39,137 nt of DNA from Candidatus Velthaea sp. (GCA_050012475.1 JBEKHC010000041.1:1-39137), one strand, 5' to 3'. Counted from the stretch's first letter, positions 1 through 7,720 are shown. A program made the numbers and translations. Notes: a model not told the origin generated them from the sequence alone.

Positions 1-197
1 CAGCCGCTCGTTTGACTGATGAGTCGCACAAGGGGCCGTCCGGCAGATCGAGCATCGGCCGCGAGCCGCCGAAGCATTCCCATATAAACGACGAGCCGAT
101 GTGTTTACCGTTTGGCCAGACCCGTGCTGCGGCGTGCGTGTTACTTTTGTGGCAATCACTGCACCACTGGTGTGTGCAGCGATGTCGGGAGGCTCGC

Positions 198-878
198 ATC
201 GCTACTATCAAAGCGGAGCCCTATGCGTTCGATCTCGAACCGGCTCGCGTCGCCCTGGTCATCATCGACATGCAGCGTGACTTTCTTGAACCCGGCGGGT
301 TCGGGGCCGCATTGGGCAACGATGTTTCGCAACTTCGGCGTGCGATCGGGCCGACGCGGCGGTTACTCGAAGCCTCACGCGCAGCCAATATATTCGTCGT
401 TCACACGCGCGAAGGCCACCGGCCCGACCTTGCCGATCTGCCGCCGGCGAAAGCGGCGCGCGGGCGTTTCAAGGTCGGCATCGGCGACCGTGGCCCGATG
501 GGCCGAATCCTCGTTCGCGGCGAAGCCGGACACGATATCATCCCCGAACTTGCGCCGCTGCCCGGGGAACCCGTCGTCGACAAGCCCGGGAAAGGTGCGT
601 TTCACGCCACCGATCTCGACGCGCTGCTCAAGAACCGCGGCATCACGCAGTTGCTCGTCTGTGGCGTGACCACCGAAGTGTGCGTGAACACGACCGTGCG
701 CGAAGCGAACGATCGCGGCTACGACTGTTTGGTGCTCGAGGATTGCACGGGTTCTTATTTCGCGGAGTTTCACCTGATGGGATTGCGCATGATCGCCGCG
801 CAAGGCGGCATCTTCGGCTGGGTCGGCGAGTCGTCGTCGGTCGTCGCCGCACTGCAGCCGCAGGCGGTCGGCGTATGA
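198..878 (+). CDS. trtA: Triuret hydrolase TrtA-like cysteine hydrolase (isochorismatase family); start uncertain (ATC198 after SD, or GTG174)
   Basis: Catalytic Asp/Lys/Cys motifs [21 protein letters not shown]. Carries the TrtA-type rather than BiuH-type residues: [10 protein letters not shown] (F,L,N), TEVC (E), SYF (Y), QGGIFG (I). GGGAGG at 187-192. Confidence 0.85.
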
Positions 879-2458
879 TCGAGACGGAGATGGTCGTCGC
901 CCAGGCCGACACCGCAGTGATTCGTCCGGCCGGTCCCGTTCGTCCGTGGGTCACCGGCGATTGGAACGGCTTTTTCGGCCTCTTCACCAACGTGCTGCTC
1001 AACGTCATCGTGTTGTCGGGCTTGAGCTTGGGCGTCGTGAAACTGCCGCCCGAAATCGTGTTCTCGCGTATTTTGCCGGCGCTGGGCATCGCGCTGCCGA
1101 TCGGCAATCTTTTCTACGCGTGGATGGCCTGGAAACTCGCGAAACGCGAAGGCCGCGATGACGTTACGGCGCTCCCGTACGGACCTAGCGTTCCGCATAT
1201 GTTCATCGTCGTGTTCTTGATCATGCTGCCCGTGTATCTCAAGACCAACGATCCGATTCTGGCTTGGCGCTTGGGTCTGGCCTGGGCGTTCATCATCGGC
1301 TGCGTGGTGTTGGCGGGTGCGTTCATTGGACCGACCATTCGGAAGTACACGCCGCGTGCCGCGATGCTGGGAACGCTCGCCGGGATTTCCATTGCGTTCA
1401 TCTCGATGCGGCCCGCATTTCAAATGTGGGAAGTCGCGTGGCTGGGATTGCTGTCGTTCGGGATCGTGCTCGTCGCCTGGACCGCGAACGTTCGGCTCCC
1501 ATTCGGGCTTCCGGGCGGACTCGTCGCCGTCGTGCTCGGCACGGCCGTCGCGTGGGTGACGACCCTGTTGGGCTGGAGCGATCTCATGCACCCCGCGCAA
1601 GTCGGCGCGGCGCTGGGCACGTTTGGCTTGCATCTGCCTCGGCCGTCGGGCGACGTGATCAGCGGCCTGCGCGATATCGGACCGCTGCTGGTCACCGCGA
1701 TTCCGCTTGGCATTTACAACTTCACCGAAGGGATGAACAACGTCGAGAGTGCCGCTGCGGCGGGCGACAACTACGATCTGCGCCAAGTGCTCATCGCCGA
1801 CGGTTCAGGCGCGATCATCGGGTCGCTGTTGGGAAGTCCGTTTCCGCCCGCGGTGTACATCGGGCATCCGGGTTGGAAATCCGTCGGCGGCCGCATCGGC
1901 TACTCGCTGGCGACCGGTGTCGTCATCGCCGTCGTCTGTTTTCTGGGCTTGACCGCATTGCTCTTGGCGGTCGTGCCGCTCGTCGCGATTCTGCCGATTT
2001 TGCTCTACATCGGTTTGGTGATCGGATCGCAGGCGTTTCAAACCACGCCCGCCCGGCACGCACCCGCCGTCGTTTTGGCGCTGCTGCCGAACATTGCGGC
2101 GTGGGCGCAGTCGCAGATCGACGGCGCCCTGGGTGCGGCCGGCACCACAGCGGCGAAGGTCGGGATGGACAAGCTCATGGACAACGGCGTGGTCTATCAC
2201 GGGATGGCGCTGCTCGGAGGAGGTGCGGTGCTCGCCGGGCTCATTCTCGGTGCGATTCTCGTGTTCATCATCGATCGGCGCTTCGATCGCGCCGCGGTCT
2301 ACGCGGTCGCGGGAGCCGTGCTGTCGTTCTTCGGCTTCATTCACGGAACGTCGCTGGGCGTCGGCGCATCGACGCAAGTCGCGATCGGATATCTCTTCCT
2401 AGCGGTCATCTGCGTGGCGCTCGGCTTGAGAAATCGTGCGCCGCAGCCTGTCGCCTGA
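875..2458 (+). CDS. NCS2/xanthine-uracil-like permease, probable triuret/biuret-family substrate importer
   Basis: Many hydrophobic helices; [30 protein letters not shown] motifs; ATGA overlap with the trtA stop. Confidence 0.8.
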
Positions 2459-3221
2459 CGTCGCGACGATCGCTGCCGAACTCGAAGCTGCACGGCGGGG
2501 CCGGCGAGCGATTGCGCCGCCGGCGGAACTGGCAGCGCTGACGCTTTCCGAAGCCTACGACATTCAAGATTTCGCCACCGCGCGCCGCGAGTCGGCTGGA
2601 GCGGTGCGTTCGGGTTGGAAGCTGGGACTGACGAGCCGCGTGAAGCAGCGCGCGATGGGCATCGACCATCCGCTGTTTGCACCGCTCTTCACGGATGGAT
2701 TGCTCGCCAGCAGCAGCCGCGTGCTCTACTCGGGCTTCATTCGGCCGCGCGCCGAACCGGAGCTCGCGTTCGGTCTCAAAGCGCCGCTCGACGGCGCCGG
2801 GGATGTCGATTCACTCATGGAGGCGGTCGCGTGGATCGCCCCGGCGCTGGAGATCACCGACAGCCGCTATCTCCCCGGTTCGCGCTCGGCCGTCGAACTC
2901 GTCGCCGATCATGCTTCGGGAGCAGCCTACGTCATCGGCGGCCGGGTGCGCTTCGACGCCGCAACGCGCCTCGACGCCATCGGCACGCAGATCATTCGCG
3001 ACGGCAGCGTGCTCGCCGGCGGAACGACCGCCGATGTCCTCGGCGATCCGTTTGCCGCGCTGCAATTGCTCGCCGAGCATTTGGGGACCCGCGGCTTTCA
3101 CACCAAGGCCGGCGATGTCGTTTTGAGCGGCGCGATTACGGACGCCTTCCCGGCCGCACCCGGCGACCGCTTCGAGGCGCGGTTGCGCGGACTCGGCACG
3201 GCCTCGGTCGTCTTCGTCTAA
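2436..3221 (+). CDS. FAH-superfamily protein, 2-keto-4-pentenoate hydratase / 4-oxalocrotonate decarboxylase subgroup
   Basis: GWKLGLTS, PRAEPELAF, LEITDSRY, VLGDP, GDVVLSG motifs; overlaps the permease stop. Confidence 0.85.
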   Translation: MRRSLSPDVATIAAELEAARRGRRAIAPPAELAALTLSEAYDIQDFATARRESAGAVRSGWKLGLTSRVKQRAMGIDHPLFAPLFTDGLLASSSRVLYSGFIRPRAEPELAFGLKAPLDGAGDVDSLMEAVAWIAPALEITDSRYLPGSRSAVELVADHASGAAYVIGGRVRFDAATRLDAIGTQIIRDGSVLAGGTTADVLGDPFAALQLLAEHLGTRGFHTKAGDVVLSGAITDAFPAAPGDRFEARLRGLGTASVVFV

Positions 3222-3281
3222 GCCGATTTGCTCGAAGCGTCGGGGAATGGGTCCGACTCCGCGCGCGGAACACCACGTCGC

Positions 3282-3473
3282 ATGAGCGATGCTCCTCCGC
3301 AAGCGATCACGGCATACGTCGAGGCTGCAGCCGTGTTGACGAAGCTGCCGCTCGACGCCGATCGCGTGCACGCTGCAGCGGTGGCGATGACCCGGATCGC
3401 GGACTTCGCAGCGGACGTCGAAGCGTTCGCGCTGGGCGACGACGTCGAGATCGCCGGCACGTTCCCGGCGTGA
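3282..3473 (+). CDS. atzG: AtzG-like (DUF4089) small accessory subunit
   Basis: 63 aa helical protein (YVEAAAVLTKLPL...EIAGTFPA) whose stop overlaps the atzE start (GTGA). Confidence 0.75.
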   Translation: MSDAPPQAITAYVEAAAVLTKLPLDADRVHAAAVAMTRIADFAADVEAFALGDDVEIAGTFPA

Positions 3474-4819
3474 ACGCGCTCGAACTTGCCGGCGCGGTGC
3501 GCAAGCGGTTGATGACGGCGCGCAAAGTCGCCGAAACGACGCTGAGCCGGATCGCCGCGACCGACGCGCGGCTGGCGGCGTTCACCGCGGTCTTCCCCGA
3601 ACGTGCGATGACGCGCGCCGCGCATCTCGATGCGGAGATTGCCGCCGGCCGCGACCCCGGTCCGCTCGCCGGCGTGCCGTTCGCGGCGAAGAATTTGTTC
3701 GATGTTGCGGGCATCGTGACGCGCGCCGGAGCGAAGGTGACCGCCGGACACCATCCGGCAGCGCGCGACGCGGATGCCGTCGCCGCGCTCGAAGCACGCG
3801 GCGCCATCCTCGTCGGCGTCACCAACATGGATGAATTCGCGTACGGGTTCGTGACCGAAAATGCGCACGACGGAACGACGCGCAATCCGCACGACCTCGA
3901 GCGCATTGCGGGCGGCTCGTCCGGCGGTTCGGCGGCGGCGGTGGCCGCCGATCTCGTTCCGCTTGCGCTGGCGTCGGACACCAACGGCTCGATTCGCGTC
4001 CCCGCCGCGCTGTGCGGAATCTTCGGCATCCGGCCGACGTTCGGGCGGCTCTCGCGCCGCGGAGCGTTTCCCTTTGCCAGCAGTCTCGACACGGTCGGTC
4101 CGTTTGCCCGGACGGCGACGGATTTGTGCGCGGCGTACGCGGCGCTCGACGCGAGCTTTTCTCCGTATACGGGAGAACTCGCCGGCCTGCGGTTTGCCCG
4201 CCTGGGCGGATACTTCGATACGGGTCTCACGCGCGAAGCCCGGCGTGCGGTCGAGCATGTTTGCGCGGCGCTGGGCGCGGTCGACGACGGCACCCTCGAT
4301 GAAGCCGCGCGGGCCCGGCAGGCCGCCTTCATCATCACCGGCGCGGAAGGCGGAGAACTGCACGCTGCGCGGCTCCGCACGAACGCCGACGAATTCGATC
4401 CTGCGACGCGCGACCGGCTGGCTGCCGGCGCGCTGTTGCCCGCGGCGTGGTACATCCGCGCGCAACGCTTCCGCTCGTGGTTCCGCGAGCATCTCGCGGA
4501 ATGCTTCACCCACATCGATGTGCTCGTTGCTCCGGCGACGCCGTTTTCCGCAACGCTGGTCGGACAGCGTTCGCTCGTCGTCGACGGCCTCGACATCGAA
4601 ATCCGGCCGAATCTCGGTGTCTTCACCCAACCGCTGTCGCTCGCCGGCGTTCCGGTCGCGACGGTACCCGTGATTGCGCCGGACACGCTGCCGCTCGGCG
4701 TGCAACTGATCGGGCGCGCCGGCAGCGAAAACGTGCTGCTTGCACTCGCCATGGAGTTGGAACGGCGCGGCGTCGTCGGCGCCGGAGCCCCCTCCGCGCT
4801 GCTCGCGACGGCCAGGTAA
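3470..4819 (+). CDS. atzE: AtzE-family amidase (1-carboxybiuret hydrolase-like)
   Basis: Amidase signature AKNLFD, NMDEFAYGF, GGSSGGS, SDTNGSIRVP; preceded by an atzG-like gene. Confidence 0.85.
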   Translation: MNALELAGAVRKRLMTARKVAETTLSRIAATDARLAAFTAVFPERAMTRAAHLDAEIAAGRDPGPLAGVPFAAKNLFDVAGIVTRAGAKVTAGHHPAARDADAVAALEARGAILVGVTNMDEFAYGFVTENAHDGTTRNPHDLERIAGGSSGGSAAAVAADLVPLALASDTNGSIRVPAALCGIFGIRPTFGRLSRRGAFPFASSLDTVGPFARTATDLCAAYAALDASFSPYTGELAGLRFARLGGYFDTGLTREARRAVEHVCAALGAVDDGTLDEAARARQAAFIITGAEGGELHAARLRTNADEFDPATRDRLAAGALLPAAWYIRAQRFRSWFREHLAECFTHIDVLVAPATPFSATLVGQRSLVVDGLDIEIRPNLGVFTQPLSLAGVPVATVPVIAPDTLPLGVQLIGRAGSENVLLALAMELERRGVVGAGAPSALLATAR

Positions 4820-4832
4820 CGCGCCGGCCACG

Positions 4833-6188
4833 GTGCGCACCGGCAGCGAGGCGTTGCCCGCATTCTATGCGTCGGGCGGCAGCGTTCACGAGCGTTTGGG
4901 CGAGGTTCACGCCGCGATCGATCTGCGCGATCCGGTCTGGATCGCCGCGGTTTCGGACGTCGCGCTGGGCGAACGCACGCGGGCGCTCGATGCGCTCGGG
5001 CCCGCGGCGCGCGCAGCGCTGCCGCTGTTCGGCATGCCGTTCGCCGTCAAGGACAACATCGATGTCGCGGGCTTGCCCACCACGGCGGGCTGCCCGGCAT
5101 TCGCCTATGCCCCGGCGCGCTCGGCGACCGTCGTCGAGCGGCTCGAACGAGCCGGCGCCGTCGTCCTGGGCAAGACGAATCTCGACCAGTTCGCGACCGG
5201 TTTGGTCGGCACGCGTTCGCCCTACGGCGTGCCCGCCAATCCATTCGATCCGGCCTACATTCCGGGCGGGTCGAGTTCGGGTTCGGCGGTCGCCGTCGCG
5301 CGCGGATTCGTCAGCTTTGCGCTCGGAACGGATACCGCCGGTTCGGGCCGCGTTCCGGCGGGTTTTACCGGAACGATCGGCGTCAAGCCCACGCACGGTA
5401 TCATCAGTGCCGCGGGTGTCGTGCCCGCGTGCCGTTCGCTCGACTGCGTCTCGATCTTCGTGCGCACGCTCGACGAAGCGGCGCTGATCCTCGATGTCGC
5501 GGCCGCGCCCGATCCGCGCGATCCGTTCTCGCGCGAGCGGCCGGCGGCGGCCGCCGTCGGGCTGGCCGCGGACCCAGCGCGACCGTTCGTTTTCGCGGTG
5601 CCGCTGCCCGAACAGCGCATCTTTTTCGGCGACGACGAAGCGCGCGACCAATTCGAGCGGTCGATCGCGCGGCTCGTCGCGCGCGGCGGCAGCGCGCTGG
5701 ACGTGGACCTCGCCTGCTGCTTCGAGGCGGCCGCATTGCTCTACGACGGCCCCTTCGTCGCCGAGCGCACCGCGGCGGTCGGCGATTTCGTCGATGCGCA
5801 TCCCGAGGCGGTCCTGGACGTCACCCGGACAATCGTGCAAAGCGGGCGCCGCTACAGCGCCGTCGACACCTTTTCAGCGTTGTACGAGCTGCGCGCGTTG
5901 CGCAATGCGGCGGCGGAGATTTTCGCCCGCGCAGCGATTCTCGTCGTGCCCACGAGCCCGACGATCTATCGGATAAGCCAGATCGAAGCCGAGCCGTTCC
6001 TCTACAATTCACGCCTGGGGACGTACACCAATTTCGTCAATCTGCTCGATCTTTGCGCGCTTGCCGTGCCGGCCGGCGCGTACGCCGGCGGAGTGCCGAT
6101 CGGCGTAACGTTCATCGCGCCGGCCTTTGCGGACGCGTCCCTGCTGGCGTTCGCGCGCCGGTTTCTCCAGGAACCGCCAGTCGCTTAG
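4833..6188 (+). CDS. atzF: Allophanate hydrolase, amidase domain only
   Basis: KDNIDV, KTNLDQFATGLVGTRSPYG, GGSSSGS, GTDTAGSGRVP, LGTYTNFVNLLD; about 451 aa with no C-terminal domain. Confidence 0.9.
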   Translation: MRTGSEALPAFYASGGSVHERLGEVHAAIDLRDPVWIAAVSDVALGERTRALDALGPAARAALPLFGMPFAVKDNIDVAGLPTTAGCPAFAYAPARSATVVERLERAGAVVLGKTNLDQFATGLVGTRSPYGVPANPFDPAYIPGGSSSGSAVAVARGFVSFALGTDTAGSGRVPAGFTGTIGVKPTHGIISAAGVVPACRSLDCVSIFVRTLDEAALILDVAAAPDPRDPFSRERPAAAAVGLAADPARPFVFAVPLPEQRIFFGDDEARDQFERSIARLVARGGSALDVDLACCFEAAALLYDGPFVAERTAAVGDFVDAHPEAVLDVTRTIVQSGRRYSAVDTFSALYELRALRNAAAEIFARAAILVVPTSPTIYRISQIEAEPFLYNSRLGTYTNFVNLLDLCALAVPAGAYAGGVPIGVTFIAPAFADASLLAFARRFLQEPPVA

Positions 6189-7720
6189 CTGCCGCCCGGC
6201 CCGCCCTGCGACGTTCGCATGAACGCGGTTTGCCAAGTCGGCCGCGGCGGAACCAAGAGTCCCGCTTCGGGCGCTGAAGGCGCACGAACGGCGCGGCGTG
6301 ACCGGCTCAAGCTCCGGCTGAGGCTCACGCTCATTGCGGCCATGGCCATCAAGGCCAGCCAAACCGGGATCTTTTCCGCGACGTCGCGGGCATCGGGCGT
6401 CGAATAGGGTAGGTCGCGCGAAACGTATGCGGCCCAGTCGGCCGAGCCGAAGTCGTGCGCTCCGACGATCATCGGCGCAACGGTGGTGGGTGGTCCGACT
6501 TTGTGTCGCGGAATCGCTTCGATTGCCGTCGCGATGACGATCGTGGCGATCACGGCGGCGACGACTGCCGTCGCGCGCGTCGCCGTGGGCTTGGCGCGCA
6601 GCGCGACGAGCACCGCGCCGACGACCGCTGCGATCTCCAGGAAGCCGATTTGTTCGCGAGCGCCGGCGAGGCTCCAGGCGTGCCACGGAAACACGATCGC
6701 GATGAGCGCGGAGGCGCGCACGAACAAGGGCGGCCGGGTCGACGCCGCGAGGATGAAGGCCGCCGGAATCGCCGCCGCCATCTGCAAATCGTGCACGAAC
6801 GGTCCGCCGAGCAGCGCCAGCGCCGGTGGCAACAGCGTGACCAACAGTTCGGAACCGGCGGCTTTGGCCGTCCGCCGGGCGATCGCCACCCCGAGGGCGG
6901 TCATCACGAAGTACGACAAGCTTCCGGCGGCGAGCGCGAAACGATCGGGAAGACCCAAAATATGCAGCACGCGCGTGAGGCTGTACTGGTCCTGGGCGGC
7001 AATTTCCGCTGCGGCATGGAGCGGCAACACGGTGTGGAAGTACTCGATGTTCGCCGGGATCCCGATCGTGGCGACGCTGATCGAAGCCAGGGCCGCGGCG
7101 CACGCGACGAACGGCACGCGGGTCTTGGGCCACCAGATGAACATCGACAAGCACGCCGGCAGCCCGATGTGCGGCTCGATCATCGCCAGGGAGCCGACGA
7201 TCGCCGCCGCCGTGTAGCGCTTGGAACTCCCCAGGATGGCGCTCACGACGAGCGCGCCGACGGCGACCGGTGGAAGCTCGCCGTAGGTCAGATTGAAATA
7301 TCCGTCGACCATCGCCAGGCAGAGCAGCGCGACGAGTGGTGAGACCTTCGCGCGCTGCGCAAGCAGCACGGCGGTCATCAAGATCGCGGCGAGGATGAAG
7401 TAGAACCAGATCGTCCGGACGACCGTAAACGGCAAACGCGCCATAAGTGAGAACGCCGCGAGCGCGTAGCCCGGCAGCGGGGCCGGCTCGACCCATGGAG
7501 CTGTCCGGTCCGCATCGTACCGCAGTTCGCACGAACGCATCGGTTCAACCTGATAGGGGTCGGCCTTTTGGTTCGCGGCTTGACCCGCGCAGTACCAGAC
7601 CGTCGTGTCCGATTGGCTAAAGTGCGATGCGGGCTTGAAGTGTCCGTCGCCCAAGAGGCCGGCCATGGCCACGACGACGGCGAGCATCCCCAGGATCTCG
7701 AATATCCGTTTCACGTTCAT
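6185..7720 (-). CDS. Polytopic membrane protein, GT-C (GT87-like) glycosyltransferase candidate
   Basis: N-terminal TM, then SDTTVWYC..DPY and PLPGY loop motifs, followed by many TM helices. Confidence 0.55.
   Translation of the reverse strand: MNVKRIFEILGMLAVVVAMAGLLGDGHFKPASHFSQSDTTVWYCAGQAANQKADPYQVEPMRSCELRYDADRTAPWVEPAPLPGYALAAFSLMARLPFTVVRTIWFYFILAAILMTAVLLAQRAKVSPLVALLCLAMVDGYFNLTYGELPPVAVGALVVSAILGSSKRYTAAAIVGSLAMIEPHIGLPACLSMFIWWPKTRVPFVACAAALASISVATIGIPANIEYFHTVLPLHAAAEIAAQDQYSLTRVLHILGLPDRFALAAGSLSYFVMTALGVAIARRTAKAAGSELLVTLLPPALALLGGPFVHDLQMAAAIPAAFILAASTRPPLFVRASALIAIVFPWHAWSLAGAREQIGFLEIAAVVGAVLVALRAKPTATRATAVVAAVIATIVIATAIEAIPRHKVGPPTTVAPMIVGAHDFGSADWAAYVSRDLPYSTPDARDVAEKIPVWLALMAMAAMSVSLSRSLSRSRRAVRAPSAPEAGLLVPPRPTWQTAFMRTSQGGPGGS

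Follow-up and report, generated by a model that had tools for sequence, protein, structure and literature searches.

A candidate triuret operon of Candidatus Velthaea that may bypass biuret hydrolase through AtzGE and an FAH-family protein

The stretch of DNA analysed here (the window) is the 39,137-nucleotide contig C41, taken from its first base, of the Candidatus Velthaea sp. assembly G000 (GCA_050012475.1 JBEKHC010000041.1:1-39137), from a peat and soil bacterium. It carries six tightly packed genes, all on the plus strand, in the order trtA-permease-FAH-atzG-atzE-atzF (Table 1). The best explanation of this cluster, with about an even chance of holding in full, is a triuret degradation route that runs through the permease, TrtA, AtzGE, the FAH-family protein and AtzF without biuret hydrolase (BiuH). 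That some BiuH-independent route for triuret operates here is likely, and the direct step from TrtA to AtzGE is, on its own, evenly poised. In what follows, G-numbers denote genomes and L-numbers the loci compared.

In the proposed route, triuret would enter the cell by the permease, its putative transporter, and TrtA would convert it to ammonia and 1-carboxybiuret. AtzGE would then convert 1-carboxybiuret, its presumed substrate, to ammonia and 1,3-dicarboxyurea. The FAH-family protein, with 1,3-dicarboxyurea as its predicted substrate, or water, would act instead of AtzH to remove CO2 and give allophanate, from which AtzF would release two ammonia and CO2. If the FAH-family protein is not the decarboxylase, this step could be spontaneous, and the urease encoded in the genome would recover urea from decay. 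Herbaspirillum TrtA was shown to make carboxybiuret (PMC7948467). AtzEG of Pseudomonas sp. ADP converts 1-carboxybiuret to 1,3-dicarboxyurea, and the AtzD, AtzEG and AtzF cascade of the same strain runs without AtzH, more slowly (PMC6219798).

The cluster and its setting in the genome

The initial annotation described six co-oriented genes, several with overlapping stop and start codons, and gene calls and profile searches confirm both this and the absence of biuH, trtB, atzH and atzD among them. The junctions are an ATGA overlap between trtA and the permease gene, a 23-nt overlap between the permease and FAH genes, a 60-nt gap between the FAH gene and atzG, a GTGA overlap between atzG and atzE, and a 13-nt gap from atzE to the probable GTG start of atzF. 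A convergent glycosyltransferase-like gene lies 3′ of atzF.

Table 1. Features of the cluster in the window (profile scores in bits).
Feature	Position	Strand	Evidence
Upstream element, GGCCAnAC then extended -10-like GCGTGnTAyTTT	114..147	+	Spacing shared with G003 and L128
trtA, predicted triuret hydrolase (isochorismatase family), probable ATC start	198..878	+	PDB match, residues
527-amino-acid membrane protein	875..2458	+	Homologs adjoin most trtA genes
FAH-superfamily protein, distinct DmpH/NahK-like subfamily	2436..3221	+	PF01557
atzG/hpxX-like small partner subunit	3282..3473	+	PF13318, 34 (cut-off 24)
atzE-family amidase	3470..4819	+	TIGR02715, 587, and NF006631, 611, both above cut-off
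atzF, allophanate hydrolase, amidase domain only	~4833..6188	+	TIGR02713, 567 (cut-off 511)

The naming of the first gene as trtA is borne out by every published diagnostic residue, and its product is supported as TrtA, a triuret hydrolase predicted from sequence. Its best PDB match is TrtA 6XIX (E 2e-81), ranking above BiuH, and the catalytic residues D24, K129 and C162 as well as Q202 are all present. Among the residues that separate TrtA from BiuH (PMC7948467), all six TrtA-specific ones, F35, N41, A134, E160, Y187 and I205, occur in the window protein (Y, Y, S, D, T and V in BiuH). As a control, the FNAEYI set was found in 72 of 80 surveyed trtA loci, one position differing in the other eight, and YYSDTV in 17 of 20 lower-identity BiuH-type matches. 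The window protein falls below the BiuH model NF050097 (283 bits; cut-off 370) and lacks the BiuH residues; the positive control, BiuH of the same-genus genome G003, scores 392 bits. Translation of trtA appears to start at ATC at position 198, preceded by GGAGG (187-200). This start yields exactly the Herbaspirillum residue numbering and is conserved in the G003 ortholog, and contigs of three public runs that cover the site show no difference. A weak ATC start could tune the level of TrtA. An ATC start with a GGAG(G) ribosome site is seen in three related loci (window 187-200, L006 2385-2400 and L128 5825-5840), and trtA of G405 has ATG at the corresponding place.

Co-transcription of biuH or atzH just upstream, which the initial annotation had named as fatal to its reading, was checked on a bridging contig, and neither gene is present. 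Synteny with the metagenome locus L128 indicated that contig C76 adjoins the window on the left. The first 336 bases of an 834-nt contig from public run X4 correspond to the end of C76 (1-336), and bases 519-834 of that contig to window 1-316, the two matches being treated as one record on the strength of equal length and depth and complementary coordinates. Between them 182 nt remain, in which a divergent metal-dependent hydrolase gene must begin, so that trtA is the first gene, with no biuH or atzH co-transcribed upstream. The element at 114-147 is, from its sequence, a probable operon promoter: the same pattern stands at equal distance before trtA in G003 and before a trtA remnant in L128, and in its strict form it has a single match in the whole G000 assembly. 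A sigma-70 scan found no full promoter, and terminators were at chance level (7 vs 6.4). An upstream riboswitch or noncoding RNA was rejected, no Rfam match within 1-900 coming near the gathering score.

The G000 assembly comprises 204 contigs and is 93.8% complete, with 6% of the genome missing. It contains no BiuH-level isochorismatase; the best other match to a TrtA query reached at most 30% over the domain, and a true BiuH query gave 28% at best. Similarly, the transporter genes of the G003 biuH locus have no close ortholog in G000 (best 33-38%). No protein of PF11533, the family of AtzH, TrtB and HpxZ, was found in the assembly (TrtB is aligned with AtzH and HpxZ according to the legend of Fig. 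S11 of PMC12625717), nor were AllFG or a urea carboxylase above cut-off. The absences noted by the initial annotation within the cluster therefore extend to the rest of this assembly for biuH, trtB and atzH, and not for atzD. An AtzD-family gene, truncated by the contig end, is present on C187 (L008 1-1050), a contig of 3.4 kb that probably stems from contamination in binning or else represents a foreign island. C187 carries a tRNA-Arg 3′ fragment that differs from the tRNA-Arg(CCG) of the host and has matches of 94-98% among alphaproteobacterial records, and its AtzD is ~61% identical to the AtzDs of the host family, three operon AtzDs being 68-87% alike. The tetranucleotide distance of C187 (0.015) is near the median of host chunks and does not separate it from the host, so its foreignness rests on the tRNA fragment and is unproven. 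The atzD of C187 also adjoins an integrase-like open reading frame.

The pairing of trtA with atzE recurs outside the family, as a neighbourhood survey of the kind proposed by the initial annotation established. The survey took in the best 80 of the 595 TrtA-like loci confirmed in a single scan of species genomes, a biased sample with many short contigs, viewed over at most 8 kb on each side, in genomes for which the tool output gives no completeness figures. Genome-wide searches covered 36 of the 80 trtA genomes for BiuH, 25 for AtzD and, for AtzE, 50 of the 68 loci lacking atzE. The exits near trtA were biuH at 18 of the 80 loci, atzE at 12, none of them with biuH, and allF/allG at 21 (two of which also have biuH), with none at 31; biuH-based counts of triuret degraders would accordingly miss such organisms. 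L052, with a match of 33% over 107 amino acids, was left out of the atzE count, and L081 has only allK in view. At the 12 atzE loci, atzH is found in 10, atzF in 11 and a detected atzG in eight. Genome-wide, BiuH and AtzD each occur in one of these 12 genomes and 10 have neither, so that in these 10 TrtA is the only enzyme known to supply the AtzE substrate, and no exit other than AtzE is known. AtzE was also found in two of 18 genomes with biuH at the trtA locus (one being the unpublished G498, locus L051), in none of 20 with allFG or allK there, and in nine of 12 with no exit there; five of these nine have BiuH too (G081, G083, G084, G086 and G096) and four do not (G078, G080, G082 and G090). 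Overall, the recurrence of trtA and atzE without biuH across phyla is supported. A cultured example is a Terrarubrum plasmid with the order trtA-permease-atzF-atzG-atzE-hpxZ. Among the PF11533 partners of trtA+atzE loci, 8 of 10 are closer to AtzH/HpxZ (50-62%) than to the two biuH-linked TrtB-like proteins (42-52%). A single clade of trtA-linked AtzEs was rejected, these proteins being scattered in a quick tree.

Other associations were seen in the same survey. trtA adjoins allF/allG, often with allK and atzF (L019, L059, L062, L065, L083 and 16 more), and a BiuH-like match was found in one of 11 allFG-locus genomes searched. This may represent a third exit for TrtA, in which carboxybiuret would pass on its carbamoyl group to yield allophanate and ATP. 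In 13 trtA-biuH loci without trtB (L012, L022, L025, L028, L031, L033, L036, L041, L049, L053, L070, L075 and L079), biuH adjoins a ChrR-type cupin gene, whose product is a candidate for another carboxybiuret decarboxylase. An Acidithiobacillus caldus plasmid (L132 4274-11000) combines xanthine dehydrogenase, ureidoglycolate lyase, an AtzD-like ring opener (41% to AtzD), atzG-atzE-hpxZ and ggt.

The FAH-family protein and the other partners of TrtA

The FAH gene, left unassigned by the initial annotation, is the most novel part of the cluster. Its product is tentatively predicted, at somewhat less than even likelihood, to be the decarboxylase of the AtzGE product, in the slot of AtzH. The best matches of the protein are the 4-oxalocrotonate decarboxylase NahK, and it scores far below the DmpH cut-off of TIGR03218 (162 vs 351 bits), among neighbours that encode ureide enzymes and not in a meta-cleavage context. 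An aromatic meta-cleavage leftover was ruled out by these scores and neighbour genes; the dmpE/dmpH-like pair of the genome itself sits on contig C10. PF01557 is the only domain found in the protein, and PF11533, the NTF2-fold of AtzH, TrtB and HpxZ, is absent from it, so any role in common with these proteins would be non-homologous. Residues K55, K63, E100, E102 and E132 (NahK numbering, taken from the alignment) are kept in 110-112 of 113 homologs, at the positions of the metal-binding Glu residues and the Lys residues of NahK. G141 is found in 108 and R143 in 111 of the 113, at positions where the genome's own DmpH and NahK both have Phe. The AtzH pocket is arginine-rich (PMC6219798), and a basic R143, placed in the pocket by the alignment, would suit an anionic ureide. 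The subfamily is tight, with nearly all of the best 120 clusters listed at 49% identity or more; it comprises more than 110 sequence clusters, annotated as aromatic-degradation enzymes. If the prediction holds, it would represent a new activity for the superfamily and a widespread misannotation.

An ortholog of the FAH gene occurs in eight of 348 genomes of the host family, all eight among the 12 that have atzE. It lies directly before atzG in G000, G003, G214, G334 and L128, ~2 kb from atzG in G421, G469 and G470, and close to the end of a contig in G382. A general partnership of FAH with trtA was rejected: the gene was found in none of the 80 loci surveyed outside the family and is therefore lineage-specific.

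The product of the second gene is a probable triuret/ureide permease. It has no Pfam, NCBIfam or PDB match, and homologs were found in 62 of the 80 trtA loci; among named Atlas clusters the xanthine/uracil permease family comes closest (score 0.90), which serves as no more than a lead. One permease homolog carries the label 'regulator' in its public record. The best PDB match of AtzE is AtzE 6C62 (E 1e-109, 45% identity), and an AtzE-family amidase is paired with an adjacent AtzG subunit, as in AtzEG. The pocket segments agree with those of AtzE from strain ADP at 12 of 13 positions (119-131) and nine of nine (169-177). The start of atzF is uncertain, being GTG 4833 or TTG 4740. AtzF (451 amino acids) best matches the AtzF amidase domain 4CP8 in the PDB and lacks the C-terminal domain, as do three family copies aligned; the isolated amidase domain of ADP AtzF is still active (PMC3944691). 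A role for AtzF as urea carboxylase partner was rejected, this enzyme being absent above cut-off from G000 and found in one of 11 relatives. Small stand-alone genes resembling the AtzF C-terminal domain adjoin trtA in L044, L046, L048, L058, L061, L063 and others, mostly in allFG loci, and G000 has one weak homolog on C74.

Substrates of AtzGE within the family and competing explanations

TrtA is found in four of 401 genomes of the phylum, and AtzE orthologs in 12 of 348 of the family. All four TrtA genomes have AtzE and only one of them has BiuH; trtA and atzE are linked in G000 and G003 but lie apart in G323 and G405. All 12 AtzE rows of the family group together as a single clade, on a long branch (0.63) and with SH-aLRT support of 100, in a quick tree from which rows of at most 330 amino acids, the frameshifted G469 copy and the unpublished G498 atzE locus were excluded, and atzG and a short atzF are conserved alongside. 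None of the 11 family loci examined has atzH; strong PF11533 (AtzH) matches occur in two of 11 family genomes and weak ones in two more. Three family AtzEs stand in atzD operons (G214, G323 and G334), with AtzD above the NF052395 cut-off in the two that were scanned; the FAH gene is seen in two of the three operons, and the third contig ends at atzE. TrtA- and AtzD-linked copies thus share one AtzE clade, which suggests a FAH-atzG-atzE-atzF module behind either 1-carboxybiuret-making enzyme. In L157 (3035-11319), L158 and L159 (5514-14155), FAH-atzG-atzE-atzF is accompanied by atzD and by genes for a deaminase-like amidohydrolase, a uridine-phosphorylase-like protein and transporters of the nucleoside type, a combination that hints at a triazine nucleoside as the natural substrate, for example an oxidised-guanine product.

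A broader scheme may be drawn from these associations, although we consider it doubtful as a whole. DmpH-like FAH proteins with Arg for the Phe of NahK would be a third unrelated fold for ureide N-carboxy decarboxylation, replacing AtzH/HpxZ; FAH-AtzG-AtzE-AtzF would be a plug-in carboxybiuret module behind TrtA or AtzD; and TrtA would have three exits (BiuH, AtzGEH and AllFGHK), the last conserving carbamoyl phosphate as ATP.

The hybrid route put forward by the initial annotation is strengthened by the identity of TrtA, the absence of an upstream biuret branch, the failure to find BiuH, AtzH and TrtB, and the recurrence of trtA with atzE. Its central step, use of 1-carboxybiuret directly by AtzGE, stays a prediction, and several observations weigh against it. 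Six of the 12 family atzE genomes (G470, G469, G421, G413, G253 and G382) have neither TrtA nor AtzD; three of these are 93-95% complete, G421 is one contig, and in these genomes atzGEF lies beside an ABC importer. The TrtA query used in this comparison did detect the gene in G323. Given a carboxybiuret half-life near 20 min (PMC7948467), AtzGE in the six genomes must have a different substrate. In L128, a closely related syntenic locus, FAH-atzG-atzE is intact while permease and atzF are absent; this locus is a deletion derivative of the window operon; ratios of nonsynonymous to synonymous substitution against the window (FAH ~0.17, atzG ~0.25, atzE ~0.12) indicate purifying selection. Since L128 lost trtA and kept FAH-atzGE, AtzGE probably has another substrate too. 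The G003 cluster lacks atzF, and biuH, an atzH-like gene and atzF lie elsewhere in that genome, while G253 (95% complete) has atzGEF with neither FAH nor AtzH. Klebsiella HpxY agrees equally well in the pocket segments, and specificity for carboxybiuret or for oxalurate can therefore not be read from the sequence. In the trtA survey, atzE was never seen together with biuH (Fisher p 0.059) or allFG (p 0.030) at one locus, but these loci are not independent and the exclusion of biuH is weak alone; in G083 and G084, biuH and atzE lie within 4 kb, making the exclusion a tendency and not a rule. The family AtzE clade thus very probably has a substrate other than the TrtA product in part of the family; candidates for this other or wider substrate range are biuret, triuret and oxalurate.

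Further features were observed at these family loci. In L128, a 28-codon remnant of the trtA 5′ end (5835-5921) stands behind the same promoter-like element as in the window, and a ~100-nt repeat between the FAH gene and atzG (6701-6813) matches many G000 contigs at 75-95% and is absent from the FAH/atzG gap of the window. A conserved intergenic pattern, TCCGTTCGCC..TTG.TG.G ... GG.TTGGA.AG, lies between atzG and a divergent binding-protein gene in six loci (L151, L152, L154, L155, L156 and L160) and is probably a regulator site or a pair of divergent promoters.

The most serious competitor, a good deal less probable than the direct route, also dispenses with BiuH but passes through biuret: carboxybiuret would lose CO2 spontaneously or by a TrtB-like FAH protein, and AtzGE would be a biuret or broad triuret-biuret amidase making allophanate for AtzF. 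This would explain the six family genomes with atzG-atzE-atzF and an ABC importer that lack TrtA, AtzD, BiuH and a strong AtzH, would cover G253 and G413, which lack FAH, and would account for an AtzF without urea carboxylase (present in one of 11 genomes). The long branch of the family AtzE fits it as well, and the original description of AtzE was that of a biuret hydrolase (PMC5806882). However, strain ADP cannot degrade biuret, and its AtzE takes 1-carboxybiuret (PMC6219798); the pocket segments of the window protein are nearly identical to those of that enzyme. Moreover, four of the six genomes that lack any source of carboxybiuret encode FAH, and a TrtB-like function would have no work there. 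Most PF11533 partners of trtA+atzE loci outside the family are also nearer to AtzH/HpxZ than to the TrtB-like proteins.

In a second alternative, FAH and AtzGE might mainly degrade oxalurate, AtzGE making N-carboxyoxamate and FAH decarboxylating it, with TrtA merely co-regulated and its product handled by a side activity or decaying to biuret; we regard this as unlikely. N-carboxyoxamate is the nitrogen analogue of oxaloacetate, and HpxZ is thought to decarboxylate it. FAH-family decarboxylases bind 2-oxo acids, a preference that fits an oxamate-type substrate better than dicarboxyurea. In the same direction point the NCBI names of AtzG and AtzH homologs (HpxX/HpxZ oxalurate catabolism proteins), the retention of FAH-atzGE in L128 after loss of trtA and atzF at the locus, the occurrence of allFG, which is the other system for oxalurate, next to trtA at 21 of 80 loci, and the common origin of oxalurate and triuret from urate oxidation (PMC11782772). 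Against it, neither the window cluster nor 11 family loci contain hpxW/ggt, the linked amidase is an allophanate hydrolase above cut-off and oxalurate yields no allophanate, and parallel routes would still need BiuH in the trtA+atzE genomes, 11 of 12 of which lack it. Least probable, and in our view very improbable, is a biuH in the unassembled part of the genome, with the published triuret route in operation and AtzGE serving the atzD of C187. The incomplete, fragmented assembly and the presence of that atzD leave room for it, and G003 has a true biuH on another contig. It is countered by the lack of any close G000 ortholog of the G003 biuH-locus transporter genes, by the occurrence of BiuH in only one of 12 family atzE genomes, and by the alphaproteobacterial-like tRNA-Arg fragment and divergent AtzD of C187. 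The route from TrtA through AtzGE, FAH and AtzF remains the best explanation.

Relation to known ureide pathways

Every enzyme family of the cluster is known; what is likely new is a BiuH-independent variant with an FAH subfamily in the AtzH position. In the parts of PMC7948467 consulted, AtzEG is named as an existing carboxybiuret amidase and triuret is described only via biuret. The suggestion in the initial annotation of a natural, non-triazine role for AtzEG is consistent with print but not new, as it is proposed in PMC6219798, where atzG-atzE-atzH clusters are mostly without atzD and are held to predate the cyanuric acid operon, and is already implied by the HpxX/HpxZ names of NCBI homologs. 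According to PMC12625717, biuH of archaea has FAH genes as neighbours, and allFGHK, which accompanies the triuret genes of comammox organisms, is read there as a separate oxalurate pathway. The literature searched holds no description of trtA with atzGE or of FAH in such a role, although published neighbourhood surveys and supplements might contain the pairing. If the reading is correct, triuret, a fertiliser impurity and urate oxidation product, has a second route, and AtzEG has a natural upstream partner that makes its herbicide-pathway substrate, which bears on the origin of atzDGEHF.

Four known systems resemble the window cluster in part. NahK/DmpH (PDB 5D2I) belongs to the FAH family, and the window protein keeps its three Glu and both Lys positions; in contrast, it lies far below the DmpH/MhpD/HpaH cut-offs, has Gly/Arg for two Phe and lacks catechol meta-cleavage neighbours. 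The Klebsiella HpxX-HpxY-HpxZ(-HpxW) oxalurate cluster, as its function is named in the legends of PMC12625717, has a homologous small subunit and amidase and represents a natural non-herbicide role of the AtzGE family, whereas the window has no hpxZ or hpxW/ggt and links TrtA and allophanate hydrolase instead. TrtA-TrtB-BiuH-AtzF of Herbaspirillum sp. BH-1 (PMC7948467) shares the TrtA residues, the terminal AtzF and a predicted yield of four ammonia; the window differs in lacking biuH and trtB (in the cluster, upstream and in the assembly), in having AtzGE and FAH instead, and in an AtzF without the C-terminal domain. With atzDGEHF of Pseudomonas sp. ADP, carried on pADP-1 (PMC6219798), the window shares the atzG-atzE order, an AtzE 45% identical, the pocket segments, a downstream allophanate hydrolase and a first enzyme that yields 1-carboxybiuret. 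Compared with that operon, atzH is missing, TrtA takes the place of AtzD, and an FAH gene and a permease gene are added.

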